Source: a virus
IMG/VR virus record: IMGVR_UViG_3300025138_000025
Location: 24,166 to 88,165 of that record
Reading direction: 5' to 3' (one strand)
DNA: 64,000 nt
Part shown: positions 24,131 to 64,000 of the stretch, in pieces
Numbering within the stretch: the first letter of the stretch is position 1
Layout of the letters: each line of letters starts with the position of its first letter
Program-made: the position numbers and the translations under genes
Notes under the pieces: model-generated
Databases searched by the model: none
Seen by the model: only the letters and a program-made list of their open reading frames with translations
What the model was told of the DNA's origin: nothing

Positions 24131-25768
24131 ATGGCTAAAAAAGATGCAACACTAATAATGAAAGAAGTAAAAGCTGGAGGCACTTTCAGAGCCTTACAAG
24201 AAGCAAAAAAGCGGATAGATAGAAAACAATGTGCATTATTATTCTGTCAAAACAGTATAGATATTAAGAATCAAGAGATAGCAGCAGCAATAAAAGTAGG
24301 CATACCAAAACAAGATATTATAGATGTTACAGAGTTAAACAGTTGGAAAACTAAAGACTTTCTAAATGAAAATAGTTGGAGAGGAAAACTTTTTATATGT
24401 AATAAAAATCAAGTTTACTACCAACCACTCATGGCTTTAGCACCAAGTATTTTTCCTAATGCTCTTAGAATACTAGATGAGTATGATGTGGAAAATACCG
24501 GTCATACAGATGGATTACTAGAAGCTATAGAAAATATAAAACAAGGTAAAAGTACTAAATATTCTCAAATAGACCAAGGTCTGCTAAATATAATTGGTGA
24601 GCACGATGAAGATAATCTATGGTTAGTAAGTGCTACACATTCGGCTGGGCTTATTTCTAACTGGTCTTTTAAAGTTATAGAACTAGACCCCTGGCACGCT
24701 AACTATAAAGGTATGAAAGATCATAAAGAAGTAGAAGTAGCAAACCCAACAATGAGTACTTTACTAGAAAATGCAGAGCTCACAGGAGCAATAAGAGATT
24801 ATGTATTAAAAGCTACAACAAAATATAAACTACTAATAAATACAACAAAAAGAGTAAATAGTGGTGAATCAGAGATAGTAACTCATGCCAGGATAGCTGC
24901 TGCTTGTAGAGCATTAGGAAAGATAGCAATAGAAGTAAACGGCAGCAACCCATATGACTCAGCAAAATGGGATGAAGCAGAAATAGTAATAGGAGGAGCA
25001 GTTTTTGATAGAACTTTTGAAGCAAGAGAAGTATACACACAAATCACTGCATATAGTAGTACTGGATGGTATGGCTCAATAGAGCAACAAGAAAGGCTTT
25101 GCGGTGTAAAAGATGACCCAGATTATCAAACTGTACTTATACTTTCAGAGGATGACATAAAGAAAAGAAAAGAAGTATTAAGAGTAAAAGAATTAATTAC
25201 TCCTGAACTTATGGAAATGACTTGGGAAGAAAGAAAAGATAAGCTTCCTGACTTTGTGATGAATCCTTACCCAGGAAATAAAAATAATGGTGGAAAATTA
25301 ACTCGTAAAAATAATAATAATTATGAAGCATTAGTTAATTTAAAGGTACTACCCAATGGCAAACCTGACTTGAGTGAATTTAGACAAAAAGCAACAATAT
25401 TATCAGAGTTTAGATTAGATGATGGCAAACCTGACGGCACTGGATTAAGTATGAGAGATATGCACGGTTATGGAAATAAATGCTCTATAGATATTGCAAC
25501 ATCAAAAAGAAGTGCAGGGGAAGTAAAACTTCGTTTAGAAGCGAATAAAAAGAATAATTTGGGATTAGCAGAGGGAACAAGAATCTCAAACTATAATAAG
25601 TTTATTCTAGGAACAAGAGAGGAGAGGCTAAGAAGAGTAGAAGAGCTGCCTAAGGAGTTATTTCTAGATGCTCAATTTGATAAAGAATATCAATGGTACA
25701 CAGTTTATACAAAGAAAAATACAACAGGAACAAGACAATATATAAAAGAGGAAAATTATGGCGGATGA
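24131..25768 (+). CDS. 545-aa protein with divergent SF2/Z1-type helicase-like motifs
   Basis: ILDEYD, VSAT, IGG..FDRTF, QQERLCG in helicase order; Walker A appears degenerate (EVKAGGT). Confidence 0.45.
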   Translation: MAKKDATLIMKEVKAGGTFRALQEAKKRIDRKQCALLFCQNSIDIKNQEIAAAIKVGIPKQDIIDVTELNSWKTKDFLNENSWRGKLFICNKNQVYYQPLMALAPSIFPNALRILDEYDVENTGHTDGLLEAIENIKQGKSTKYSQIDQGLLNIIGEHDEDNLWLVSATHSAGLISNWSFKVIELDPWHANYKGMKDHKEVEVANPTMSTLLENAELTGAIRDYVLKATTKYKLLINTTKRVNSGESEIVTHARIAAACRALGKIAIEVNGSNPYDSAKWDEAEIVIGGAVFDRTFEAREVYTQITAYSSTGWYGSIEQQERLCGVKDDPDYQTVLILSEDDIKKRKEVLRVKELITPELMEMTWEERKDKLPDFVMNPYPGNKNNGGKLTRKNNNNYEALVNLKVLPNGKPDLSEFRQKATILSEFRLDDGKPDGTGLSMRDMHGYGNKCSIDIATSKRSAGEVKLRLEANKKNNLGLAEGTRISNYNKFILGTREERLRRVEELPKELFLDAQFDKEYQWYTVYTKKNTTGTRQYIKEENYGG

Positions 25769-48214: not shown

Positions 48215-48858
48215 TGAAAATATTCGTAGGCTATGAATCAGCATATCCTGAAATGTTTGAAGTGTGTAAGGCATCAATCTTACGATTTAATCCTACACAC
48301 GAAGTTATACCTTTAATTACTTCGGAATTAGAGGAACAAGGAATCTACTATAGAAAAGAAAAAGGAAATACCGAATTTGCTTTTACTAGATTTCTTGTAC
48401 CTCAACTTTCCAACTACATGGGATATTCTCTATTCTGTGATGGTGACTTTCTATGGAGATGTGACCCACAAGAGATAACTCATTTTAAGAAAGATAATGA
48501 AGAAGTTATGTGCGTACAACATGCAGACTTAATGTTTGACCAATACACTAAGATGCATGATAAATTAAACAAACCTTATGAGAAAAAATATTGGTCATCT
48601 TTAATGTACTTTAATAATAAAGAGTGTACAATGCTAAATGAGTGGTATGTGAACAATGCTGCCGCTAAACATTTACATGGGTTTACTTGGGCTAGTAACT
48701 TAGGTTCTTTACCTGCTGCTTATAATGCTCTAGTAAATTATTACGATTTTGGTGAAAGAGCCAAAGGAGTACATTTTACAGACGGTGGACCATGGATGGG
48801 TATTTACGACCATGACGAATACTGTAAAGAATGGACAGACATATATAATTCATTATAA
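48214..48858 (+). CDS. GT-A glycosyltransferase (GT8-like)
   Basis: KIFVGY, TEFAFTRFLVP, FCDGD, WSSLM, HFTDGGPW. Confidence 0.88.
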   Translation: MKIFVGYESAYPEMFEVCKASILRFNPTHEVIPLITSELEEQGIYYRKEKGNTEFAFTRFLVPQLSNYMGYSLFCDGDFLWRCDPQEITHFKKDNEEVMCVQHADLMFDQYTKMHDKLNKPYEKKYWSSLMYFNNKECTMLNEWYVNNAAAKHLHGFTWASNLGSLPAAYNALVNYYDFGERAKGVHFTDGGPWMGIYDHDEYCKEWTDIYNSL

Positions 48859-49775
48859 TGAGAAACATACCTGTAACAGCAGTAGACCAGTATGATTTTT
48901 TAGCACACAGGCGTGAGCAAGAAAAGTTACATTGGGAAAAGAAAAGCGCACTAACAGAGTTAGACTCAATTCTTACTGTTGAAATAAATACTACAGAGTT
49001 ATGTAATAGAACTTGTGTCTTTTGTCCGAGACACGACCCCAAAGTATTTCCAAATAGAAACTTGCATCTTACCACAAAAGGAGCCGAAACAATCGGTCTC
49101 GAACTAGGTAAGGCAGGTTTTAGTGGAAAAATATCATTGAGTGGATTCGGAGAGAATTTACTTAATCCAAATTTCAGAGAGATAGTTCATATCTTTCGAC
49201 ACACAGTTCCATTAGCAACTTTAGAGTGTAATACTAATGGAGATAAATTAACCCAAACATACGCACAAGAACTATTTGAATATAGTGGATTAGACTTGAT
49301 TTACATAAATCTTTATGATGGTGTAGAACAAATGACTCACTTTGATAAAGTTATGAAGAACATACCTGAAGAAAAGTACAAATATCGTATGCATTGGGGT
49401 GACTTTAAAGACCATGGCTTAATACTTAACAACCGTAGCGGGGTCATCGATTGGGTAGGTATAGAAGAATCTAGTATAACTTCTTTAAAAGGAAAGCCAT
49501 GTCACTATCCTTTCTACAAAATGTTCGTAGATTGGAATGGAGATGTTCTATTTTGTAGTAACGACTGGGGTAGGGAACATGTTGTGGGAAATTTGCTGCA
49601 AGATACATTACACAATGTATGGTTCGGTAAACCTATGACAAAAATTCGTAAAAAATTAATGAGAGGAGACAGGTCACAAAGCCCTTGTAATAAGTGTAGT
49701 GTAGACGGTTCTCTGTTTGGAAAAGAATCTTTCAATCTAGTAAAGGAGTACTATGAAAATCGCAGTAACAGGTAG
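48858..49775 (+). CDS. radical SAM protein with SPASM/twitch domain (copy 2)
   Basis: CNRTCVFC, GE.LL, TNG, C.YP..VDWNG..CSND..GN..CNKC. Confidence 0.92.
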   Translation: MRNIPVTAVDQYDFLAHRREQEKLHWEKKSALTELDSILTVEINTTELCNRTCVFCPRHDPKVFPNRNLHLTTKGAETIGLELGKAGFSGKISLSGFGENLLNPNFREIVHIFRHTVPLATLECNTNGDKLTQTYAQELFEYSGLDLIYINLYDGVEQMTHFDKVMKNIPEEKYKYRMHWGDFKDHGLILNNRSGVIDWVGIEESSITSLKGKPCHYPFYKMFVDWNGDVLFCSNDWGREHVVGNLLQDTLHNVWFGKPMTKIRKKLMRGDRSQSPCNKCSVDGSLFGKESFNLVKEYYENRSNR

Positions 49776-50256
49776 CAGTAAATTAGCAAATTATATACAA
49801 GGTAATAAAATAAGAGTAGAGTTTGGGGCAGATTGGTCACAATATGATGTATTCGTAAACAATGCTCATGTAGAGTGGGAACAATGCAGACTTCTCGAAG
49901 AAGTGTATGAGGTATGGAAAGATGATGAAACTAAAACAATAGTTAATATTTCGTCAAGAGCCCATCAACCTAATATATCTAAAGGATATAAGTACGCTGC
50001 ACAAAAGGCCGCTCTAAATCATATGGCAACTAACTTAAATTATAACAGTAATGCCAAGTGTAGAATTGCTACAATCAATTTTGGGTTATTAGAGTCTTCA
50101 ATGCATTCAAGTATCTCATACGAGAGAGCAGGTGAGTGGGTAGATTGGGTGATAAAAAACCCAGACATTACTGAAATAACAATTGAAAATCCTGGAAATT
50201 ATATCCAAATTCAGAATGAAAAAGAAATCGCTAGAAGTTTGGGATTGAAGTCATAA
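49753..50256 (+). CDS. short-chain dehydrogenase/reductase (compact)
   Basis: AVTG, VNNA, NISS, YAAQK. Confidence 0.8.
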   Translation: MKIAVTGSSKLANYIQGNKIRVEFGADWSQYDVFVNNAHVEWEQCRLLEEVYEVWKDDETKTIVNISSRAHQPNISKGYKYAAQKAALNHMATNLNYNSNAKCRIATINFGLLESSMHSSISYERAGEWVDWVIKNPDITEITIENPGNYIQIQNEKEIARSLGLKS

Positions 50257-50885
50257 TGGGACGAGTAATATTAGTAGGAAATTCAGTAGAATTACTTCAA
50301 CACGAGTACGGCTCATATATTGACAGTTTTGACACAATTGTTAGATTTGGAAAAGGCATACCTACAAATGAGAATTTCGTCTCGATAGGTAAAAAAACTG
50401 ATATGTGGATTACAGGTTTCTTAAGACAGAAGTACTGGAAACACTTTAAAGACGCAAAAGTTTTATTTAACCGATGTCGAATACATATGGACAAAGAACC
50501 TATCACTCCTAAGGTAGAAGGATTAGAGTTTACGAATATGTTTAGTGATGAAGAGATACTAGAAATATTTGATTTGGTAGGAGCTATCAATGGTAAAGCA
50601 GATGGAGGCAATCGTCCTTCAGCAGGTTTCCTAGGTATAATGTATTTCTTGAATAAGTGTGAGTATGATAGTTTGGAAATTATAGGATTTGATTTCTTTG
50701 CTAAAAAGTTACCATTCTCCACAGGGGCAGACTATCCTGCTAGTTGGCATTTACCAGTTAATAGTATTTCAAAGACTCCTCATAATCCTAATGAGAGACA
50801 AATAGTAAAAGAACTATCCGATAGAGGTAGATTAAATTGGAAGATTCTCTCCAACTTAGAAGAAGAATATTTAGATTTTTCCTAG
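50256..50885 (+). CDS. GT29 sialyltransferase-like protein
   Basis: LVGNS..G..IDSFD.IVR..G.KT, PSAG, GFDF, H...E motifs. Confidence 0.8.
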   Translation: MGRVILVGNSVELLQHEYGSYIDSFDTIVRFGKGIPTNENFVSIGKKTDMWITGFLRQKYWKHFKDAKVLFNRCRIHMDKEPITPKVEGLEFTNMFSDEEILEIFDLVGAINGKADGGNRPSAGFLGIMYFLNKCEYDSLEIIGFDFFAKKLPFSTGADYPASWHLPVNSISKTPHNPNERQIVKELSDRGRLNWKILSNLEEEYLDFS

Positions 50886-51821
50886 TCTAAATCCTACTTT
50901 CACCAAAGACCCAGCTACGCGTTTCTGCTTAGCTGATTTCAATAATAATTTTTCATTGTTCCTAGCATTTCTTAAGTTAATAGGTATGCTTGGAATCAAA
51001 TTAGTATACATATCCCAAGGTAGGGAGAGCTGTACACAAGTAGGTAACAGTAAGTAGTCTTTGATTAACCACTTATGTTGTATGTTTATTGTAAAAGATT
51101 TTCTTAACATTACATTATAGTTTACACTATCTAAAGGCCCAATGGCTTCTTTCTCTACTAGAATATCGTTTTTACCATTCATGTATAATGGTACAAATTT
51201 ATGTTGATAAGTTAGTAGCTTTCCGACGAAACATTCAGTACCTGCTTGATATAGCAGTCTGTCTATCTTTGGCATGTTAGGAGATTGAGCTGCTAGTGCA
51301 TCAGTCTCAGTTGGACAGAATAGTTCTTCCAATGGGAAAGTCTTTAACATGTTATAATTAAATATCATAAACTCTGGGTCAATGTTTTCCATTTTAGTTG
51401 GTGCAATAGGTATTTGTAAAATTCTGTAGAAGTCCTTGAATCTTGGATGTTTTCTAAAAACTCTTTTATGTGATAAGAAAGAAACAGAGCCACTAAAGAA
51501 ATCTTCATTAGGGAAGTTGTTTGCCCATTTACCATTTATTATATTATTACCACCTAGCCATACTATTCTTTTATGTAGTCCACCTTTATCTTTCCAATGG
51601 TCTAATAGATGTAGCATGCATTTTGCTAAGTCTGACTGTCTCCAAAAGGACTCATATATCTTTACGTTAGGAAAGTTATCCAGTATCCATTCTATAGGTG
51701 CTTCTGCCCAGTCTTTATTATTTACGTAAAGATGTATTCTTACTTCTTCTTTATCAGGCAGGAGTGAAGCTAAAGTAAACATACTCCATACTTTTTTATA
51801 GGGGTGTACTATTTCAATCAT
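50871..51821 (-). CDS. glycosyltransferase-like protein (GT-A/GT8-like, divergent)
   Basis: TLASL..IHLY..IVWLGG..FMIFN..PW spacing; canonical DxD not seen. Confidence 0.45.
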   Translation of the reverse strand: MIEIVHPYKKVWSMFTLASLLPDKEEVRIHLYVNNKDWAEAPIEWILDNFPNVKIYESFWRQSDLAKCMLHLLDHWKDKGGLHKRIVWLGGNNIINGKWANNFPNEDFFSGSVSFLSHKRVFRKHPRFKDFYRILQIPIAPTKMENIDPEFMIFNYNMLKTFPLEELFCPTETDALAAQSPNMPKIDRLLYQAGTECFVGKLLTYQHKFVPLYMNGKNDILVEKEAIGPLDSVNYNVMLRKSFTINIQHKWLIKDYLLLPTCVQLSLPWDMYTNLIPSIPINLRNARNNEKLLLKSAKQKRVAGSLVKVGFRLGKI

Positions 51822-52680
51822 GTTTTTTTATCTTTTTAAATTCCCAAAAGTTGTTAATATACGCTTGGAGTCTTTCTTCTGCATCTTCGTCAAAATCAAA
51901 TATAATTCCAGAGTTTTTTGCTGAAAATATCTTACGAAGTGCAAGGTATGAGTCTCTATTTGATATCGTATCGTAAAAGCTCTCATAGGTTAGTAAATTT
52001 TTCTCTCTCGCTACTTTAGGAAAGCTAACAAGAGAAAGTTTCTTTCTGAGAAGGATTGCAATTAATCCCATCTCACTATTAGGTGCGGTAGCTACTTCAC
52101 TACTATTAAGTAGTAATTCATACCCACCTTCTTTTTTATTTAGTACATTAGCAGCACCAAATCTTCTTTTTAAATCTGCGATGTAGATAGGAGCGGTAAT
52201 TGGATGAGGTTTAATTTTATATCCTTCATTTACTAATTTACCTACTCTATTATAATCAATCACTGTTCCTTTACATAATAAGTTACTTCCTGGTGGAAAG
52301 ATAACTTTATCGTGAAACTCTGTGTTCCATTGTAAAGTATACTTGTTCTGTAAATTATTTTTTATCTTATCGATTCTTTCTTCATCTATTTTTATGTCTG
52401 AATTAGTAATCGATTTAAATAATTTAGTATTTATCTTTACAGAGTTAACTCTACAATATATTCCTTTACCTAAAAAATCTGTATACAACCATTTTCTAAT
52501 ACTGTGTAATTCATTAGTGTTAAACCATAAATCATATTCCCAGTCTATACCTTCATTAGTTTTTAGCTCTAATTTTCTTTTAAGGTTGGCTAAACCATCA
52601 AGGTCATCTTTAGGTCTAAAAGAAGAACCTGACTTCATAAAATGAGTTGCGACATCGCCCAGAGACTCATTTATTGTCAT
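51814..52680 (-). CDS. capsule-biosynthesis/sialyltransferase-like GT-B protein
   Basis: IKPHP and later LL....V...NSEMGL.A.L..K motif as in KpsS/KpsC-type proteins; start uncertain (52680 or 52725). Confidence 0.55.
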   Translation of the reverse strand: MTINESLGDVATHFMKSGSSFRPKDDLDGLANLKRKLELKTNEGIDWEYDLWFNTNELHSIRKWLYTDFLGKGIYCRVNSVKINTKLFKSITNSDIKIDEERIDKIKNNLQNKYTLQWNTEFHDKVIFPPGSNLLCKGTVIDYNRVGKLVNEGYKIKPHPITAPIYIADLKRRFGAANVLNKKEGGYELLLNSSEVATAPNSEMGLIAILLRKKLSLVSFPKVAREKNLLTYESFYDTISNRDSYLALRKIFSAKNSGIIFDFDEDAEERLQAYINNFWEFKKIKKHD

Positions 52681-52699
52681 CGCTGTTAGCGGCTTCTTT

Positions 52700-52867
52700 T
52701 TAGGACGCTTTCTTGTTCTCTGCATTTTTTGCCTCGAAAAGTTGTTTTTCCATATTCTTCATTCGTTCTTCCATTTCTCCAATGCTGTCAAATATTGCTA
52801 ACATCATTGATTCCAGTTTTTTATTGAGATAGTCTGGTGTAATCTCGTCGTTCGTTGGTTTTATCAT
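52700..52867 (-). CDS. small coiled-coil protein (not in ORF track)
   Basis: 55-aa ORF MIKPTNDEITPDYLNKKLE.. starting 3 nt after the repeat-protein stop. Confidence 0.65.
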   Translation of the reverse strand: MIKPTNDEITPDYLNKKLESMMLAIFDSIGEMEERMKNMEKQLFEAKNAENKKAS

Positions 52868-52870
52868 TTT

Positions 52871-55800
52871 TTAAGAATCGCTCCATTCTGAGCCATCCCA
52901 ATAAGACAATCCAAAGTCTGCAAGACTCGCAACTTCGGTATCAAATATTGTACCTGCTTGGGAGGCGGTTATTCTTTCAAATACTGTTGTTGTTGTATCG
53001 AAAGTAGTTGTTGTTAAGTGGTCAGTTGTTCTGTTTGTTTCTGTTGCTTTTGTAGTTTCAATAGTAGTTGTTGTAGTTCTACCTGTGGCAAAGATTGTTG
53101 TTTTTGTTGTTTCAAAAGTAGTACTTGTTCCAAATGTTGTTGTTCTAGCTGTTGCTGTATCTTTGGAAGTATCAAATGTACTTGTTGTAGTCCTACTTGA
53201 ACCAGTTGTTCTACTAGATGCGGTACCTCTATCTGTAGTGAAGGTACTTGTTGTTGTTCTACTTGATGCTGTCGCTCTTGTTGTAACTGTTCCTTGTGTA
53301 GTTGCAAAAGTAGTAGTAGTAGCTCTACTCGACGCTGTACTTCTAGTTGTATTAAATGTTGTAGTTGTAGAATGAGACGTTCCAGTTGCTCTAGAAGAAG
53401 CTCTTGAAGTAATATAAGCAGTCTCATAAGCTGTTGACTGAGTAGTATTAGTGCTTCTACTTGTATTTGTAGACTGAGCAGTATTAGTACTTCTAGCTGT
53501 GTTAGTAGCCTGAGTAGTGTTTGTACTTCTGCTTGTGTTTGTACCTTGAGTAGTAGTATATGAACTAATAGTAGCGAATGTTGTATTATCTATATAAGCA
53601 GTTGCAGTTATAAACGTAGTTGAAGTATTAGTTGTTTGTGATGTATTAGTACTTCTAGCTGTGTTAGTAGCCTGAACAGTATTTGTACTTCTACTTGTAC
53701 CAAATGATGTATTATTTGTAAAGGCTGTATTATTAGTAAACCCAGTACTTCTACTTGTATTAGTAGCTTGACTTGTGTTTGTACTTTTACTTGTAGAAAA
53801 TGATGTATTATTTGTAAAGGCTGTATTATTAGTAAACCCAGTACTTCTACTTGTATTAGTAGCTTGAGTAGTATTTGTACTTCTGCTTGTGCCAAATGCT
53901 GTGTTATCAATATACGCTGTAGAGGTATTTGTGTTTCTAGCAGTATTCGTTGCTTGAGTAGTAGTATAAGATGTTATAGTTGCAAATGATGTGTTATCGA
54001 TATACGCTGTAGCTGTATTGGTGTTTCTAGCTGTATTCGTGTTTCTAGCTGTGTTTGTATTCCTTGAAGTTCCAAATGCTGTGTTATCTATGTAAGCCGT
54101 AATTCTAGAAGTGTTAGTGTTTCTTGAAGTTCCAAATGCTGTATTATCTATGTAAGCTGTAATTCTGCTAGTGTTAGTGTTTCTTGATGTGTTTGTTGCT
54201 TGACTAGTGTTATATGCAGTACTTCTACTCGTGTTTGTATTTCTAGCTGTATTTGTAGCAAAAGCAGTGGAGTTTGTAAATCCAGTAGAGTTTGTAAATG
54301 CAGTGTTTCTAGATGTATTCGTGTTTCTAGCAGTGTTTGTACTTCTAGATGTCGATCTATCATCTGTAGCAAAGTCAGTTCCGTTTTCTGGGTCAAAATT
54401 AAGATTTACAAAGGTTGTTATGTAAGTTGTTATATTTGTAAATCCAGTTGAGTTTGTAAACCCAGTACTTCTACTTGTGTTTGTATTTCTAGCTGTGTTA
54501 GTGTTTCTAGATGTATTATTTGTAAATCCAGTAGCGTTTGTAAATCCTGTCGATCTAGTTGTACCAAATGAAGTATTATTTGTAAATCCAGTTGAGTTTG
54601 TAAACCCAGTACTTCTACTTGTATTAGTCGCCTGTGTAGTATCGTACGCTGTACTATTAGTAAACGCAGTACTTCTACTTGTATTAGTCGCCTGTGTAGT
54701 ATCGTATGCAGTAGAGTTTGTAAATCCAGTACTATCGATATACGCTGTAGATGTGTTCGTGTTTCTACTTGTATTAGTAGCTTGAGTAGTATTTGTACTT
54801 CTGCTTGTTCCAAATGCTGTATTATCTATATACGCTGTAGAGGTATTTGTGTTTCTAGCAGTATTGGTAGCCTGTGTAGTAGTATAAGATGTTATAGTAG
54901 CAAATGTAGTATTGTCTATATAAGCAGTATCTCTAGCAGTGTTAGTGCTTCTACTTGTATTAGTCGACTGTGTAGTATCGTATGTTGTTATAGTAGCAAA
55001 TGTAGTATTGTCTATATAAGCAGTATCTCTAGCAGTGTTTGTACTTCTAGATGTTGCTGTACTTTGTGTAGTAGTATAAGCTGTTATAGTTGCAAATGAT
55101 GTGTTATCAATGTAAGCTGTAGAAGTTGCAAATGTAGTTGAGGTATTAGTTGTTTGCGTTGTATTTGTGCTTCTACTTGTATTTGTAGCCTGTGTAGTAT
55201 TTGTACTTACTGTTGTTCCAAATGCTGTATTATTTATAAAGGCAGTAATAGTAGCAAATGTAGTATTGTCTATATAAGCAGTACTTGTAGCAAAAGTAGT
55301 AACATCTACATAAGCTGTTGTTGTTGCAAAAGATGTGTTTCTGCTAGTACCTATTGTTGTATCGAACGCTGTTATATATGCAGTTATAGTATTAAATGCG
55401 GTAGTCGTAGCTTTACTTGTATTAAATGTTGTAGTCGTAGTATAAGCTGTCGTTGTTGACTGAGTCGTATTAAATGTTGTTGTTGTAGTAAATGCTGTAG
55501 TTGTAGTATACGCAGTAGTAGTACCTTGTGTAGTTGTAAAGGCAGTCGTTGTAGTATAAGCTGTTGTTGTAGTAAATGCTGTAGTTGTACTGGTCGTTGT
55601 AGCAAATGTAGTAGTTGTATCAAATGTCGTTGTTCTACTTGTGTCTGTTGTTCTGCTAGTGTCGAAAGTTGTACTTCTGCTTGTATCAAAAGTTGTTGTA
55701 GTATTATAATCAGTATCAAAAGTAGTAGTCGTATTGAATACTGTATTCTGCACTCCTGATATAGTACTAGTAGTTGTAGCAGTTTGTCTTGTAGTTGCAT

Positions 55801-55939
55801 GCGTAGCAGTAAATGGCCCTGCTAAAGAACCATTATCATTTACGTAAACTTCGTTGACACGACGAATGGTTCCGCTATCATTGATAGCGATAAATCTAAC
55901 CGTCCGTAATGTACCAGAATCGTTTACGAATATTGCCAT
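52871..55939 (-). CDS. Thr/Asn/Ser-rich repetitive tail-module protein
   Basis: 1022 aa; TAYIDNT, TNTSR, STGFTN repeats; unique ends and a unique central VNLNFDPENG; in tail operon. Confidence 0.85.
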   Translation of the reverse strand: MAIFVNDSGTLRTVRFIAINDSGTIRRVNEVYVNDNGSLAGPFTATHATTRQTATTTSTISGVQNTVFNTTTTFDTDYNTTTTFDTSRSTTFDTSRTTDTSRTTTFDTTTTFATTTSTTTAFTTTTAYTTTTAFTTTQGTTTAYTTTTAFTTTTTFNTTQSTTTAYTTTTTFNTSKATTTAFNTITAYITAFDTTIGTSRNTSFATTTAYVDVTTFATSTAYIDNTTFATITAFINNTAFGTTVSTNTTQATNTSRSTNTTQTTNTSTTFATSTAYIDNTSFATITAYTTTQSTATSRSTNTARDTAYIDNTTFATITTYDTTQSTNTSRSTNTARDTAYIDNTTFATITSYTTTQATNTARNTNTSTAYIDNTAFGTSRSTNTTQATNTSRNTNTSTAYIDSTGFTNSTAYDTTQATNTSRSTAFTNSTAYDTTQATNTSRSTGFTNSTGFTNNTSFGTTRSTGFTNATGFTNNTSRNTNTARNTNTSRSTGFTNSTGFTNITTYITTFVNLNFDPENGTDFATDDRSTSRSTNTARNTNTSRNTAFTNSTGFTNSTAFATNTARNTNTSRSTAYNTSQATNTSRNTNTSRITAYIDNTAFGTSRNTNTSRITAYIDNTAFGTSRNTNTARNTNTARNTNTATAYIDNTSFATITSYTTTQATNTARNTNTSTAYIDNTAFGTSRSTNTTQATNTSRSTGFTNNTAFTNNTSFSTSKSTNTSQATNTSRSTGFTNNTAFTNNTSFGTSRSTNTVQATNTARSTNTSQTTNTSTTFITATAYIDNTTFATISSYTTTQGTNTSRSTNTTQATNTARSTNTAQSTNTSRSTNTTQSTAYETAYITSRASSRATGTSHSTTTTFNTTRSTASSRATTTTFATTQGTVTTRATASSRTTTSTFTTDRGTASSRTTGSSRTTTSTFDTSKDTATARTTTFGTSTTFETTKTTIFATGRTTTTTIETTKATETNRTTDHLTTTTFDTTTTVFERITASQAGTIFDTEVASLADFGLSYWDGSEWSDS
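53702..53867. repeat. 96-nt-period direct duplication (C-arm)
   Basis: 70-nt identical block at 53702 and 53798. Confidence 0.85.
54063..54166. repeat. 60-nt-period direct duplication (C-arm)
   Basis: Near-identical CTTGAAGTTCCAAATGCTGT..GTAATTCT at 54063 and 54123. Confidence 0.8.
54607..54705. repeat. 60-nt-period direct duplication (N-arm)
   Basis: CAGTACTTCTACTTGTATTAGTCGCCTGTGTAGTATCGTA at 54607 and 54667. Confidence 0.8.
54891..55039. repeat. 96-nt-period direct duplication (N-arm)
   Basis: GTTATAGTAGCAAATG..CTCTAGCAGTGTT at 54891 and 54987. Confidence 0.85.
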
Positions 55940-55942
55940 GTC

Positions 55943-56167
55943 TTAACTCGAGTATACGAAAAAGATGTGACCGCTAGCCGTACTTCCTACTCCGGTTGGA
56001 GCAGTGGTAGTAATTGTGTGTGGTAGTCGAGCTGAGGGCACTGTGCCTGATGTAATCTTGGCTGCTGCTATACCTGCACCTGAGAAGTTTGCACTGGAAT
56101 CCACGGCTTGCACACCGTCAATCTTTATCCCTGCATCTTCAATATTAAAATCTAATTTTTGTCCCAT
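55943..56167 (-). CDS. small tail-associated protein
   Basis: ITSGTVPSARLP fibre-like motif, G.I.FVY end. Confidence 0.65.
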   Translation of the reverse strand: MGQKLDFNIEDAGIKIDGVQAVDSSANFSGAGIAAAKITSGTVPSARLPHTITTTAPTGVGSTASGHIFFVYSS

Positions 56168-56168
56168 T

Positions 56169-59100
56169 TTATACCTCTATTGTTGTTCTTATAAATTTAT
56201 AAGCCATTGTGTCACCGCTTGCTGGTGTCACTCTTAATCTTACAGAGCCACTACTTATATCTGCATCAAATGTTGCTTGTGCACCATTGTCAAATATAGA
56301 AGCGTACTGCGTTAAATAAACTGTTGTTCCGTCATGGAAAAGTGTTATTTCTAGTGATTGATAATCACTGTCTGTTGAATTTGTAATCTGTACTAAATAC
56401 TTAGCAGTTCTAAATACTGAAGCTGTAAAATTATCTAATGTAATAGTTGCTGTAGAACTTGAAGTTCCTGTGCCTGTATGAAAACCAGCTACTCCGTTTA
56501 TAGAAAGTTTTTGTGATGGAAAACTGTCTCCAACACCTAGACTACCTGTTGTATTTACTGAGGAAGCATTTATATTACTAAATATAACATTTCCTGTCAT
56601 GCTTTTACCACTAAGGGCTGCACTTGATAATTGTGTAGTTGTTACAGAGTTATTTGCAATCTCACTTGAACCAACAGCGTTTGCTGCTATTTTAGCTGCT
56701 GTTACAGCATTAGCATTTATTTTTGCAGTTGTTACTTGTAAAGCTCCTAGATGTATTGTATCTATTGAGCCAGTCTTTAATTCTGCGCTGTCTACTGCAT
56801 TGGCTGCTATCTCTGCTGAGCCTACTGCATCCGTAGCTATTAAGTCTGCAGTAATTAATCCTGATGATATCATACCTACATTGTTAATTGCATTGTCTGC
56901 CATCTTAGCTGCTGTTACTTGATCATCTCCGATATGTATTGTATCAATACTACCAGTTACTAATTCTGCTGAATCTACGGAGTTAGCCGCTAATTCTGAA
57001 GAGCCTACTGCACCTGCTGCTATATGTCTTGCTACTATTGAATCTGTTGCAATCTTTGTACCGTCTATGACGTTAGCTGCAAAGTCTGCTGTTTGGTCAA
57101 TAGCACCTGATGCTATCTTTCCTGCTACAACGGCTCCGGCTGCTAACTGATCTGAAGTTACCTGTCCGTCATCTATATGCTGAGTAAGAATAGCATTGTT
57201 TGCTATCTTAGAGCCTATGACTATACCACCACCTAATTCATCGGTTGTAATACTTCCGTTAACAATGTGGATTGCAGAAACAGAGTTAGATGCTAGTTCT
57301 GTAGCTGTTACAGCGTTTGTTTGTATCTTAGCTGTTGCTACAGAGTTACCTGCTAATTGTGCAGTGTTAACCTGTGCGTCATCAATATGTTTTGTTAAGA
57401 TACTATTCTGAGCAATCTTCGTACCATCCACAGCGTTATCTGCTATGTTGGATGTTGCTATTGTGTTGGCTGCTATTTTTGCGCTTGTTACTTGTAAGTT
57501 CCCTATGTGTGCAGTATCGATACTGCCATCTACGTAATGTTCTGAATTTATAGAGTCATCAGCAATTTTTGTTCCGTTTATTGCGTCAGCTGCAATGTCT
57601 GCACCAACTATAGTACCGTTTGCAATCTTTGCTGAAGTAACTGAATTGTCTGCTATTGCAGAAGCTGTTCCTGTTAAGTTACCTGTTACGTTTCCTTCTA
57701 AATCTGCTACTAGCGTACCTTTTGCATATCCTGTTCCTGAAGTATTTACAGTTGTAGTTGGTTGTACTTGTAAGTCTTTAAATATCTGCCATTTACCAGA
57801 ATCATCTGCGTTTCTGAATATACCTGAATATTTGTCTGTACCACCAGTATCGTATAATCCATAGAAACCTATATCAACTGCATCTGAACTTCCGTTGCCA
57901 GTTGCCATTGAGATAAGAGAGTCTCCAGTTGTAATTGTTGTAGCTGAAGCTGCGAATGAAGTTCCTGATACTGTCACGTTTCCTGAGAAAGTAACATTAC
58001 CTGACATTGTCTGTCCACTTAATGCGTCTGATTTAAGTTCTGCTACCGATACAGCGTTTGCTGCTATCTGTGTAGCTGCTACTGCATTTCCAGCTATTTC
58101 TACTGCGGAGACTGAATTTACTGCAAGTTTTGCATTTGTTACTTGGTCGTCTGCAATATGTATTGTGTCTATTGAGCCTGATACTAGTTCTGCAGTATCT
58201 ACTGTGTTAGCTGCTAAGTGTCTTGATAAAATTTGGTTAGTAGCAATTTTTGCTGAAGTAACATTGTTATCTGCTATCTTTGCTGTTGTTACATTAGCAT
58301 TTAATATTTTTGCTGTTATAACTGAATCAGAAGCTAGGTGTATGGCGTCTATTGAGCCACTAACTATTTCTGCTGTATCTACAGAGTTTGCAGCAAGTTG
58401 ATCTGCTGTAATCTGTGCATCGTCTATATGTCTTGTTAAAATACTATTAGATGCTATCTTACTACCATCTACTGCATTGTCTGCTATATTACCAGTAGCA
58501 ATAGTATTTGCAGCTATCTGGTCTGTTGTTATTTGGTTATCGTCTATGTGTCTTGTTAAAATACTATTAGAAGCAATCTTTGTACTATCTACTGCGTTGT
58601 CTGCTATCTTACCTGTTGCTATAGTATTATCTGCTATATCTCCTGATACAATAGTACCATCTGCGATATGGTCTGAAGCAATTACTCCAGAAGGTAGCTT
58701 AGCTGCTGTAATAGCATTATCTGCTATTTTACCAGTTGTTACATTACTATTAGCTATTTTAGCTGTAGTTACTTGTGAAGCTCCTATATGTATAGTATCT
58801 ATACTACCTGTTATTAGTTCTGCACTATCTACAGAGTTAGCGGCTAGTAAGTCTGCTGTTACAGTTCCACTTGGGATGTGTGTAGCTGTTACTGAATTGT
58901 TTGCTATTTCTGAACTGCCTACTGAATTTAGTGCAATTTTTGCACTTGTTACTGAGTTAGCGGCTAATTTAGCTGCTGTTACTTGTAAAGCCCCTAGATG
59001 TATTGTATCTATTGAACCAGTTTTTAATTCTGATGAATCTACTGCATTTGCTGATATTTCTGCGTTTGCTATAGCGTTAGCAGCTACGTGTCTTGCTACT

Positions 59101-59480
59101 ATTGAATCTGTTGCTATCTCGCCTGATGTTACATTATTTGCAGCTATCTTACTTGTTATTACTTGAGACGCACCTATATGAGAAGAGTCTATACTTCCAT
59201 CTATTAGCTGAAGACTATCAACTGAGTTAGTTGCTAGTGCTGCTGTGTCTATTGAATTGTCTGCAACTCCTGTTACCGCAGATTGTTGTAAATTAATCGC
59301 TGCAATAGCATTAGTTGATATTTCACTAGTTCCTACTGCGTTTGCGGCTATTTCACTTGCACCTACTGCGTTAGCTGCTATTTCACTTGCTGTAATTGAA
59401 TTACTTACTATTTCAGTAGTACCTACTGCATTCGCCTCAAGTGAGGAGACTAATGCATTACTTTTTCCTATGAGTGACAT
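56169..59480 (-). CDS. long tail fibre with 10-aa repeats
   Basis: N(A/S)V/I-x-x-x-K/E/H-I-A decamer repeats, two non-repeat domains. Confidence 0.8.
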   Translation of the reverse strand: MSLIGKSNALVSSLEANAVGTTEIVSNSITASEIAANAVGASEIAANAVGTSEISTNAIAAINLQQSAVTGVADNSIDTAALATNSVDSLQLIDGSIDSSHIGASQVITSKIAANNVTSGEIATDSIVARHVAANAIANAEISANAVDSSELKTGSIDTIHLGALQVTAAKLAANSVTSAKIALNSVGSSEIANNSVTATHIPSGTVTADLLAANSVDSAELITGSIDTIHIGASQVTTAKIANSNVTTGKIADNAITAAKLPSGVIASDHIADGTIVSGDIADNTIATGKIADNAVDSTKIASNSILTRHIDDNQITTDQIAANTIATGNIADNAVDGSKIASNSILTRHIDDAQITADQLAANSVDTAEIVSGSIDAIHLASDSVITAKILNANVTTAKIADNNVTSAKIATNQILSRHLAANTVDTAELVSGSIDTIHIADDQVTNAKLAVNSVSAVEIAGNAVAATQIAANAVSVAELKSDALSGQTMSGNVTFSGNVTVSGTSFAASATTITTGDSLISMATGNGSSDAVDIGFYGLYDTGGTDKYSGIFRNADDSGKWQIFKDLQVQPTTTVNTSGTGYAKGTLVADLEGNVTGNLTGTASAIADNSVTSAKIANGTIVGADIAADAINGTKIADDSINSEHYVDGSIDTAHIGNLQVTSAKIAANTIATSNIADNAVDGTKIAQNSILTKHIDDAQVNTAQLAGNSVATAKIQTNAVTATELASNSVSAIHIVNGSITTDELGGGIVIGSKIANNAILTQHIDDGQVTSDQLAAGAVVAGKIASGAIDQTADFAANVIDGTKIATDSIVARHIAAGAVGSSELAANSVDSAELVTGSIDTIHIGDDQVTAAKMADNAINNVGMISSGLITADLIATDAVGSAEIAANAVDSAELKTGSIDTIHLGALQVTTAKINANAVTAAKIAANAVGSSEIANNSVTTTQLSSAALSGKSMTGNVIFSNINASSVNTTGSLGVGDSFPSQKLSINGVAGFHTGTGTSSSTATITLDNFTASVFRTAKYLVQITNSTDSDYQSLEITLFHDGTTVYLTQYASIFDNGAQATFDADISSGSVRLRVTPASGDTMAYKFIRTTIEV

Positions 59481-62410: not shown

Positions 62411-62851
62411 TTAGCTATGTCTATCTCCATACAATGTTTGAGCAAATTTATCTTTTAACGCTAGTAGCTTGTCTTCTTCTAACATGATAGTTTTTGCCCA
62501 GTTGAGCATTATAGCCTGAGTTACGTTTTGATAGGGAGTAATAAATCCTGATAGTTCACCTCCTGCTTTGGCTCTCCAAGGTAAGTAAACCTTTAAATAT
62601 TCTTCGTGGGTTTGGTCAGCTTGTCCATCAACTAAATGACTGGCATTTGCACTGGTAGTATCTGTTCCTGTAATTTTTAATCTAACCATCTTTACCATGT
62701 CATTTTCTCTTATTCGTGGCATTTCTTGATTATTCACAAAGTTTTGAGTTTCATGATTAGAGTACTCCCATACAAGATTCATTTGTACATTGAGTGTAGT
62801 AGTTACTGCAGCCCCTTCACTATCTGTTCCTGTTTTAATTATATAGTCCAT
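62411..62851 (-). CDS. hypothetical tail-associated protein
   Basis: FITPYQNVT....LNW motif; coupled to Hint-domain gene. Confidence 0.6.
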   Translation of the reverse strand: MDYIIKTGTDSEGAAVTTTLNVQMNLVWEYSNHETQNFVNNQEMPRIRENDMVKMVRLKITGTDTTSANASHLVDGQADQTHEEYLKVYLPWRAKAGGELSGFITPYQNVTQAIMLNWAKTIMLEEDKLLALKDKFAQTLYGDRHS

Positions 62852-64000
62852 TATACTTTGCTATCTCCTAACGCTACGTTATGTGCGACATATCCTTTAT
62901 TATTTCCACCACGTACCACATAAGTATCATCATCTTCTACATCCATATTATGGGTAATACAAGATTGTGTTACTTTAGGTATCGCAAATATTTCTTCTCT
63001 AGTTCCATCTTCACAGATTAAAAAGTCCCCAACTGCTAAATCTTCTACTTTTACAAATTTAAATACATCATCTTTAAATGTTAACATTGGATGTTCATTA
63101 GTAACTTTTAAATTATAATTAATCCAATAATAGTTTGTATGTGCATGGGCCTCTGTTACTTCAGTAACATTTGAAGTTCCAAAACTTCCACTGCCTATTT
63201 CTGGAGTTGTCCAAGTTTTCCAAGCATTTTCATCTAGTGATAGACTTGAATGTCTGAATGATTTTACATCTTCTCCAGCAGTTACATCTTCGATTGCTTT
63301 CGTAGTTCCGTCAGCCATAACTACAGGAGTTCCTTGTACGAAACAACCGCCGCCTCCTCCGCCACCACCTCCGCTTCCAGAGGTGCCTCCTGTTATTACT
63401 TGATAACCTTGTGAACTTTCACCAATAGAAACTGATGTACTAGTAGTAGTTAAATTGGTTCCTGCAGAAGTTAATTCTACATTAATATAGCTTCCATTTG
63501 CAATATTTGCTGCAGAAGTTCCAAATGATCCACCATCAATTTTAAATCTTGCAGAAGTTGTATTACTTATACTTACACTTTTTGTTCCTGCAAAACCACC
63601 AACTACTTGAGTATTAGAATAAAAAGCTGTACTTAATGCTACACCTGTTTGGTTAGCAAAACTAAATACTGGGTCTGTTGTTCCAAATTTGATAAATCTT
63701 GCTTCGGCTGAACCTAATGTTTCTGCTCCATCTCCCTGCGCTCTTACAAACATTGATACATTACCTGAGCCTGTAAAAGTAAATGCAATCGGCATATTAG
63801 ATGTTTGTGCACTAGAGAATAGTCTACCTTCTGATAAGTTACCTGCTGTATATTGGTCAATTCTTGGAGTTTCATAAATTAATGTTCCTTCACTTGATGT
63901 TGAACTTCCGGTTCTTGCTTGTATACTAATAGTTTTAACATGGTTTGTTCCACCAGTCAATCTTACAAATCCTTGATAGAATCCTGGACCACTACCTACA
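62851..64000 (-). CDS. tail protein C-terminus with poly-Gly linker and Hint domain (5' end outside window)
   Basis: Frame open to window edge; G9-CFVQGT.V.MADG, T.EHP, HN at 62878-62883. Confidence 0.85.
   Translation of the reverse strand, partial: VGSGPGFYQGFVRLTGGTNHVKTISIQARTGSSTSSEGTLIYETPRIDQYTAGNLSEGRLFSSAQTSNMPIAFTFTGSGNVSMFVRAQGDGAETLGSAEARFIKFGTTDPVFSFANQTGVALSTAFYSNTQVVGGFAGTKSVSISNTTSARFKIDGGSFGTSAANIANGSYINVELTSAGTNLTTTSTSVSIGESSQGYQVITGGTSGSGGGGGGGGGCFVQGTPVVMADGTTKAIEDVTAGEDVKSFRHSSLSLDENAWKTWTTPEIGSGSFGTSNVTEVTEAHAHTNYYWINYNLKVTNEHPMLTFKDDVFKFVKVEDLAVGDFLICEDGTREEIFAIPKVTQSCITHNMDVEDDDTYVVRGGNNKGYVAHNVALGDSKV

Follow-up and report, generated by a model that had tools for sequence, protein, structure and literature searches.

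A phage fibre chain that runs out to a receptor-binding tip and then returns is known on a small scale from T4 gp37, in which the needle (D11, residues 882-1009) is inserted into the collar (D10, residues 811-881 and 1010-1026); the residues that contact the receptor lie at the turn, and iron coordinated by His runs along the axis (PMC6957217). In this manuscript, we describe a gene at positions 52871-55939 (minus strand) of a 64,000-nucleotide (nt) stretch of viral DNA (the window; positions 24,166 to 88,165 of IMG/VR record IMGVR_UViG_3300025138_000025). Its product (P0001; 1022 amino acids, aa), here called the fibre protein, is Thr-rich and mirror-complementary. A sequence-only reading of the window had proposed that this chain folds back into a very long antiparallel filament, and knew of no described phage fibre of such design; the latter statement needs correction, given the small fold-back tip of gp37. 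The likeness would lie in the course of the chain, and the two differ in scale, with roughly 60 residues per arm in the needle and 460-770 in the fibre family. The needle is also iron-stabilised, whereas the fibre protein contains only 3 His, none in a repeated motif, and has no His-x-His pattern. T4 gp37 has neither an aromatic-Arg/Gln code nor a repeat architecture of this kind, and the fibre protein matches no PDB chain: searches by phmmer against PDB (E≤1) and by Pfam gave no homology to either the collar or the needle.

Three other systems invite comparison. The stalk of streptococcal antigen I/II (AgI/II) is built from a folded-back alpha-helix and a polyproline II helix, which project a tip domain by more than 50 nm and leave the termini at the base (PMC4048849). 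As in a fold-back fibre, its A-region and P-region repeats pair, with a variable binding domain at the tip and the termini at the base; it differs in that it belongs to the bacterial cell wall, has globular domains at tip and base, and pairs helices, and there is no homology. In the fibre protein, both arms would instead be beta-type Thr-rich strands with residue-level complementarity. The antiparallel coiled-coil arms of the SMC/Rad50 type also form a long intramolecular hairpin with matched arm lengths and a special apex. These are alpha-helical heptads in cellular ATPases, whereas the fibre protein has a period of 2: its self-identity autocorrelation peaks at even lags only (lag 7 = 0.128), and it contains no Leu/Glu/Lys-rich heptads (6 Leu, 9 Glu and 5 Lys in 1022 residues). 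The L-shaped fibre of phage T5, pb1, makes the first reversible host contact; its three identical chains run in parallel and carry an intramolecular chaperone at the C-terminus (PMC4690869). This is the long side fibre of a T5-type siphophage, and the phage of the window is T5-like in its capsid/protease and polymerase; no Pfam or PHROG match in the fibre protein indicates pb1 homology or a C-terminal chaperone/peptidase S74 domain.

At the level of short peptides, Thr-rich repeats have been reported to favour beta-hairpins (PMC11936462). Such designed or predicted peptides are short, and synthetic or in silico, whereas members of the fibre family are natural, 800-1600 residues long, and carry a second complementary letter pair. 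The gp37 needle, the AgI/II stalk and the SMC/Rad50 arms are analogues, not homologs, and none of them has a complementary code on beta strands. The results below point to a long fold-back fibre with an aromatic-Arg/Lys/Gln code, of a kind not described before, and to a candidate fold.

Mirror register of the fibre protein

The fibre protein contains 373 Thr, 114 Ser, 105 Asn, 100 Ala, 64 Phe and 58 Arg (36% Thr and 11% Ser), and only two Pro. Within aa 51-987, even positions hold 164 of the 168 F/Y/W/R/K/Q residues, and S, A, N, G and I are nearly confined to odd positions. Judged from the sequence, this parity is the pattern of a two-faced strand, with no odd-length slip over more than 900 residues. 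The N arm (aa 51-510; 54410-55789, on the minus strand like all features of the gene) consists of strict even/odd alternating repeats that pair in mirror order with the C arm (aa 524-987; 52979-54370), such that positions i and j face each other where i+j=1038. Between the arms lies the tip, VNLNFDPENGTDF (aa 511-523; 54371-54409), whose mirror centre is N519 (codon 54383-54385) in D-P-E-N-G-T. An internal non-repeat segment near the midpoint of the protein (511.5) had been pointed out before, and it is this tip.

The register was located by scanning every mirror register i+j=S for S=800 to 1249 over residues 60-965. The register S=1038 brings together 56 aromatic-R/K and 21 aromatic-Q pairs, with one aromatic-aromatic pair and no R-R pair, compared with a mean of 4.8 aromatic-R/K pairs (standard deviation 6.0) over the scanned registers, and the runners-up are simply the ±6 side lobes of S=1038 (33+10 and 29+16 pairs). 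Over the whole protein, in this single gapless register, an aromatic residue lies opposite 79 of the 87 R/K/Q residues, with no basic-basic clashes. The eight without an aromatic partner all lie in the terminal domains (aa ≤64 or ≥989), so that every R/K/Q between aa 65 and 988 is opposite an aromatic residue. Conversely, only seven aromatics of the repeat body have no R/K/Q partner, and two of these form F515:F523 beside the turn. Shuffles that preserve parity gave 15.3 ± 3.2 pairs (maximum 28 in 1000 shuffles), and when 140 even registers were tried on each of 100 shuffles, the top score never exceeded 28 pairs. The opposition of F/Y to Arg that the sequence-only reading noticed in hexads near the core is therefore real, is far stronger than in shuffled repeats, and extends beyond those hexads across the whole protein. 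The even-face pairs at S=1038 are chiefly T:T (106), F:R (28), Y:R (24) and F:Q (21), and even positions that face each other share 1.39 bits of mutual information, compared with 0.33 ± 0.10 when other registers are used.

The choice of aromatic partner is itself uneven. In the window protein, Gln faces Phe 21 times and Tyr never; in 40 distinct homologs (see below), Gln is opposite Phe in 663 cases and Tyr in 48, and Arg is opposite Phe in 1243 and Tyr in 655. Aromatics are about twice as common on the N arm as on the C arm in the same set (1886 vs 901). Since the sequences are related to one another, these family-wide counts do not represent independent events.

The repeats of the two arms are matched in length, as had been claimed for two periods, both of which were found by Tandem Repeats Finder. 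A 60-nt (20-aa) tandem repeat in the N arm (54600-54733) mirrors one of unlike sequence in the C arm (54043-54187), and a 96-nt (32-aa) tandem repeat in the N arm (54861-55098) mirrors one at 53648-53907. A third matched pair, overlooked in the earlier reading, has a period of 36 nt (12 aa): in its N-arm copy (55219-55332) the large residues are aromatic only, and in its C-arm copy (53432-53555) they are R/Q only. When the local dominant period was followed along the protein with a sliding window, the periods read as a palindrome (38/14, 22/16, 12, 32, 30, 20, 6, core, 6, 20, 30, 32, 12, 22/16, 38/14). A search for a DNA palindrome in the fibre gene gave just one weak inverted repeat (25 nt, 72%). 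The symmetry therefore exists at the protein level only, and a DNA-level palindrome was dropped as its cause.

Patterns of this general kind might also arise in a conventional parallel beta-solenoid or triple beta-helix, with the mirror pattern being a by-product of repeat expansion and homogenisation (old ends, young middle). Two things count for such an origin: edge-to-centre gradients are common in repeat arrays, and Thr-x-Thr faces are found in beta-solenoids, e.g., in insect antifreeze and ice-nucleation proteins. Repeat turnover, however, leads to direct repeats and not to a residue-exact mirror complementarity of unlike residues. The local period runs through 6, 12, 20, 22, 30 and 32, rather than keeping the fixed coil length of a solenoid, and the best parallel offset (D=300 to 699) yields 38 pairs vs 79 in the mirror register. 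We consider a solenoid or triple helix to be very improbable, and a further point on it is given with the homologs.

Arm lengths in the homolog family

A pattern scan of IMG/VR gave 66 homologous loci, of which 12 have open reading frames (ORFs) cut by contig ends and one has no such ORF. The 53 complete ORFs, together with that of the window, make 54 sequences, 40 of them distinct, with lengths (L) of 807-1621 aa. All complete homologs share conserved N-terminal and C-terminal ends. The best mirror register is L+15, L+16 or L+17 in 40 of the 40 distinct sequences (z-scores of 7.2-12.2), and in most of them a window-by-window comparison finds the register constant from base to tip, with ties at ±22, 44 and 66 in 22-periodic stretches.

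Two checks that make no use of the pairing rule place the centre at the same point. In all 12 sequences that carry DPExGT (L 910-1063), the side N-terminal to this motif is 15 or 16 residues longer than the C-terminal side, and in 34 of the 40 distinct sequences the 13-aa window least rich in T/S/N/A lies at most 15 aa from (L+16)/2. The remaining six (L053, L051, L039, L041, L054 and L056) have a second non-repeat stretch in the N arm near aa 329 (approximately 320-340); in L053, the one written out, this stretch is still opposite a complementary C-arm partner. The inner arms of these six long homologs shift by +2 to +7 (with larger offsets in L039), like internal bulges in a stem.

The homologs were also aligned as strings of residue pairs, which we call hairpin alignments. 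Seven close homologs are 81-87% identical on both arms, two that are more distant are 67-72% identical, and the gaps occur only as paired units of 2-32, apart from a single gap of size 1 that adjoins the tip. For example, an extra 32-aa unit of the window protein is missing from both arms of L005, L007, L008 and L012. The earlier expectation that an indel in one arm is compensated in the other is thus borne out twice, by the register of L+15 to L+17 throughout and by the paired gaps that the hairpin alignments need, and together these mean that the arm lengths covary exactly over a two-fold range of length. Repeat turnover in a solenoid would not hold the two halves equal over such a range.

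The tip and the fold-back reading

At the centre, the Thr-rich pattern ends. The Thr share falls from 0.40 in the arms to 0.13 in the tip, the G/P/D/E share is 0.27 in the tip vs 0.06 in the arms (higher in the tip in 35 of 40 sequences), and in the window protein the central pairs are the non-complementary F:F and D:D. AlphaFold2, run on aa 409-629 with a 10-row alignment, places strands only at aa 510-515 and 522-527 (predicted local distance difference test, pLDDT, about 50-55). We place the turn at the centre because the Thr pattern stops there, G/P/D/E rise, F:F and D:D flank it, and the low-confidence AlphaFold2 strand pair is found there. The apex residue differs among homologs. The claim that the tip is hypervariable holds in part: of the four equal-length pairs that are informative, two have their greatest variability in the tip, one shows this mildly, and one does not show it. 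Between L027 and L028, 13 of 30 positions differ in the zone that reaches 15 aa to either side of the centre (2-7% elsewhere), and between L007 and L008 10 of 29 tip positions differ (3-15% elsewhere); L033 and L046 differ at 4 of 30 tip positions, and differences between L045 and L058 are not enriched at the tip. Five further equal-length pairs have two differences or fewer each, and are uninformative on this point. The tip is the likely receptor-contact site.

The explanation that we hold to be probable is that one chain folds back on itself, forming an intrachain antiparallel fibre with both termini at its base. In this arrangement, a single polypeptide would run out to the tip and back, residue i lying against residue 1038-i for about 468 consecutive rungs, and both arms would be uninterrupted beta-type strands with strict two-residue alternation. 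On the code face, an aromatic residue would lie opposite Arg, Lys or Gln at every second or third rung, with Thr opposite Thr in between. In antiparallel sheets, Thr-Thr pairs and aromatic-cation pairs across strands are both favourable. The other face would carry small residues (S, A, N, T, G and I) without a specific pairing rule, and the turn would be made in a short tip that is rich in Gly/Pro/Asp/Glu, non-repetitive and variable. The N-terminal module and the C-terminal domain would be placed side by side at the base, which is where attachment to the virion would occur. Because register matters, a repeat gained or lost in one arm would be matched in the other, and length would evolve in paired steps from 807 to 1621 aa. 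Several hairpins are probably bundled, with the small-residue face inward. For a fully extended chain, at the textbook strand rise of 0.33 nm per residue, the computed length of the paired part is about 119, 154 and 253 nm for the members of 807, 1022 and 1621 aa, respectively.

Several results weigh against this fold-back arrangement, and should be read with it. AlphaFold2 gave a mean pLDDT of 31.7 and a predicted template-modelling score of 0.14 for aa 409-629 (10-row alignment), and for the single sequence of aa 459-579 a pLDDT of 36.0 and no secondary structure. To our knowledge, no two-stranded beta structure of such length has been described. Coupling on the odd face is not specific to the register (0.31 bits vs 0.25 ± 0.03, with one neighbouring register higher). 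For some long homologs, a single register accounts for only about half of the R/K/Q, and some inner arms require shifts of +2 to +7 or larger offsets. In four close pairs of equal length, mirrored double substitutions show no significant excess (2 observed vs 0.49 expected, 1 vs 1.5, 2 vs 0.42 and 0 vs 0.30), and flips of orientation (F:R to R:F) are few, numbering 0-4 per pair alignment. Finally, in the four sequencing runs examined, no contig spans the whole gene.

The single clear flipped column is rung 41, in the gapless comparison of the region near the tip. Changes of a large residue on one side mostly stay within class (K to R, F to Y), and a few break a pair. With the doubles non-significant and the flips few, the evidence for covariation consists mainly of the paired indels and the conservation of the pairing rule. 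Point-substitution covariation was dropped as support on the result from the four close pairs, and a pairing specificity of the odd face was dropped because it is indistinct from that of neighbouring registers.

The gene itself is not an assembly artefact. Fourteen metagenome runs of marine or seawater origin, drawn from at least 10 studies, contain near-identical DNA (word share 0.68-0.95), as do six metatranscriptome libraries (word share 0.53-0.61), the latter showing presence and not transcription. Three of the DNA runs, each from a different study, yielded contig pieces that are at least 99% identical without indels, and they cover the tip (53918-54462, i.e., 545 nt, in two runs; 53958-54462 in the third). 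One DNA joint of low depth (54964 to 55467; depth 4, 21-nt side) and two joints in RNA libraries were found, all within repeats. The constancy of the mirror register in homologs that were assembled independently argues against repeat mis-assembly.

A pairing between chains would produce the same register. An even number of extended chains could lie head to tail, position i of one facing position 1038-i of its neighbour without any turn, and statistics of i+j=constant cannot by themselves separate this from pairing within a chain; that AlphaFold2 does not build the long hairpin bears on it as well. Yet such an arrangement gives no reason for a G/P/D/E-rich break at the exact centre (0.27 vs 0.06; 35 of 40 sequences), nor for the non-complementary F:F and D:D pairs there, nor for the variability of the tip (two of four pairs). 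In addition, the type of module found at the N-terminus heads many small phage proteins, which suggests a single attachment end, whereas a head-to-tail dimer would have one at each end. Inter-chain pairing is on these grounds unlikely. A prediction of a three-copy complex (aa 449-589) scored 0.01 without controls, and counts neither for nor against a trimer.

The fold-back of a single chain is thus the best-supported explanation, with the beta-hairpin geometry itself deduced from the pairing pattern. Of the long antiparallel filament proposed at the outset, the mirror pairing and the paired indels are borne out. For the fold itself, AlphaFold2 gave no confident model, and over approximately aa 400-630 it predicted strands only where they flank DPENGT.

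Gene neighbourhood, attachment and significance

The source record is an 88-kb linear IMG/VR contig with an estimated completeness of 84%. At one end it carries a fused protease-major-capsid gene, a portal and a terminase, and the fibre gene lies at the far end of the structural module. In the fusion, a head maturation protease and the major capsid protein are joined in a 682-aa ORF (L068 121-2169, minus strand, at the start of the window's record), and the records of T5-like coliphages annotate two adjacent genes under the match to it. The capsid/protease shares about 38% identity with its T5-like coliphage counterparts, and the Pol A about 46% with that of T5-like Aeromonas phages, and from these two proteins we judge the phage of the window, an uncultured marine one, to be T5-like. 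The same values rule out a T4-like affiliation, which had been the first guess from PHROG matches.

Every locus that bears flanks has the same gene order (126 aa, 518 aa, 1103-aa tail fibre, 74 aa, fibre gene, 303 aa and 316 aa). Directly upstream of the fibre gene, a 74-aa ORF (55943-56167, minus strand) ends in GH(I/V)(F/W)FVYS(S/A) followed by TAA, and is kept wherever the flank is covered. It is in frame with the fibre ATG, and in 20 distinct junctions the spacer is 3 nt in 17, 6 nt in one, and 0 nt with a doubled TAA in two. A stop read-through that would join the two was rejected on account of the TAA in all 20 junctions, doubled in two; the junction looks like one of translational coupling rather than read-through, and the 74-aa protein may serve the fibre as a chaperone or adaptor. 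Farther upstream, the repeat-rich 1103-aa tail-fibre protein (56169-59480, minus strand) matches phrog_892 (E=3.7e-108). Its best deposited relatives (30-37% identity) are proteins of the T7-like cyanophages P-GSP1, S-TIP37 and NATL2A-133, annotated as hypothetical or tail-fibre proteins. Since these relatives are T7-like and the backbone is T5-like, an exchange of fibre modules across phage families is suggested. At the start of the fibre module, a 369-aa product (62851-63960, minus strand) carries matches of the Hint/intein type (PF05203, E=8.3e-9; PF07591, E=8e-6). The two conserved genes downstream (303 aa, phrog_26179, and 316 aa; 50871-52725, minus strand) always follow the fibre gene, and their products are candidate assembly factors.

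On the plus strand, genes for radical-SAM/SPASM (305 aa), SDR-like (167 aa) and GT29 sialyltransferase-like (209 aa) proteins converge on the fibre module (48858-50885), and are syntenic in many homolog loci; a role in modifying the Thr-rich fibre is possible. They bring up a further alternative, in which the fibre protein would be a mucin-like, O-glycosylated and largely disordered Thr/Ser spacer decorated by neighbouring glycosyltransferases, and the mirror pattern would be structurally meaningless. The Thr and Ser content given above fits such a spacer, as do the GT29-like match (PF00777, E=5.5e-7) with its SDR-like and radical-SAM/SPASM neighbours, and the treatment of the arms as unstructured by AlphaFold2. 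On the other side, a disordered spacer leaves unexplained the parity of 164/168, the exact register (z about 20 vs shuffles) and the covariation of the arms in 40 of 40 sequences. With 2 Pro per 1022 residues and an exact register, the protein is also not the Ser/Thr/Pro-rich, register-free sequence expected of a mucin-like spacer, and the 303- and 316-aa neighbours match no glycosyltransferase family. A disordered spacer is accordingly very improbable; within the fold-back arrangement, a folded hairpin may in addition be glycosylated.

The ends of the fibre protein were considered separately. The N-terminal module (aa 1-50; 55790-55939) consists of three VNDSGT(L/I)R-type repeats and is present in all homologs. 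Residues 1-66 (55742-55939) match phrog_13729 (E=4.2e-8; profile positions 6-55 of 190), and 94 representatives were found at E≤1e-3. The three-repeat module heads many small phage proteins (approximately 160-200 aa) whose C-terminal parts are unrelated, as well as a few that are larger (P0013-P0095); phrog_13729 was at the N-terminus in 10 of 10 sampled small relatives. A "tail fiber assembly" PHROG is a further match of one module-bearing protein, P0090 (462 aa). By these matches, the module appears to be a widespread attachment module. The C-terminal domain (aa 988-1022; 52874-52978) ends in SYWDGSEWSDS, is conserved in all homologs, and would sit beside the N-terminal module in a hairpin. 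From the gene context and the N-terminal module, we infer a virion fibre that is anchored by both termini and contacts the host with its tip; attachment at the base and a role in receptor binding are both deductions of this kind.

Searches of annotated databases gave no match beyond this module. The whole protein has no Pfam family, PHROGs gave no family for the whole protein or its last 63 residues but only for the N-terminal module, and a phmmer comparison of the full-length protein with every PDB chain found no match at E≤1. In a word search of 5.8 billion proteins, 8000 low-complexity candidates were scored and none passed. Among deposited phages, no homolog was found by megablast, or by tblastn of aa 1-60, and the ESM Atlas has only unnamed viral clusters, without a model. 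The literature covered, from which subscription journals are mostly absent, describes neither the family nor a long beta-hairpin fibre with aromatic-Arg pairing. Within the reach of these searches, and whatever geometry lies behind it, a residue-exact and length-compensated mirror complementarity over roughly 700-1500 residues in the members of a family is undescribed.

We lean, by a little, towards a broader proposal, namely that the family represents a new fibrous fold class, a protein counterpart of the nucleic-acid stem: a single-chain, two-stranded antiparallel ribbon of 120-250 nm, with a two-letter code that sets the register, length tuned by paired indels, and a swappable tip for host specificity. 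If this is true, marine T5-like phages use the ribbon as an ultra-thin, length-adjustable probe, and the pairing rule is simple enough to be copied in protein design. Confirmation of the fold would establish a new way to build a long fibre, from a single chain that is zipped to itself by a residue code and not from a parallel trimeric helix or spiral, and for protein design it would be a natural template for rods of programmable length. Such a fold would also open tests of how long an isolated beta-ribbon can be, of how cross-strand aromatic-cation pairs set register, and of how repeat proteins evolve under length matching, a process for which the natural alleles already display compensated indels. 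In phage biology, the family provides a widespread, length-variable candidate for host recognition among T5-like marine phages that are uncultured, and its small variable tip could be compared across samples.

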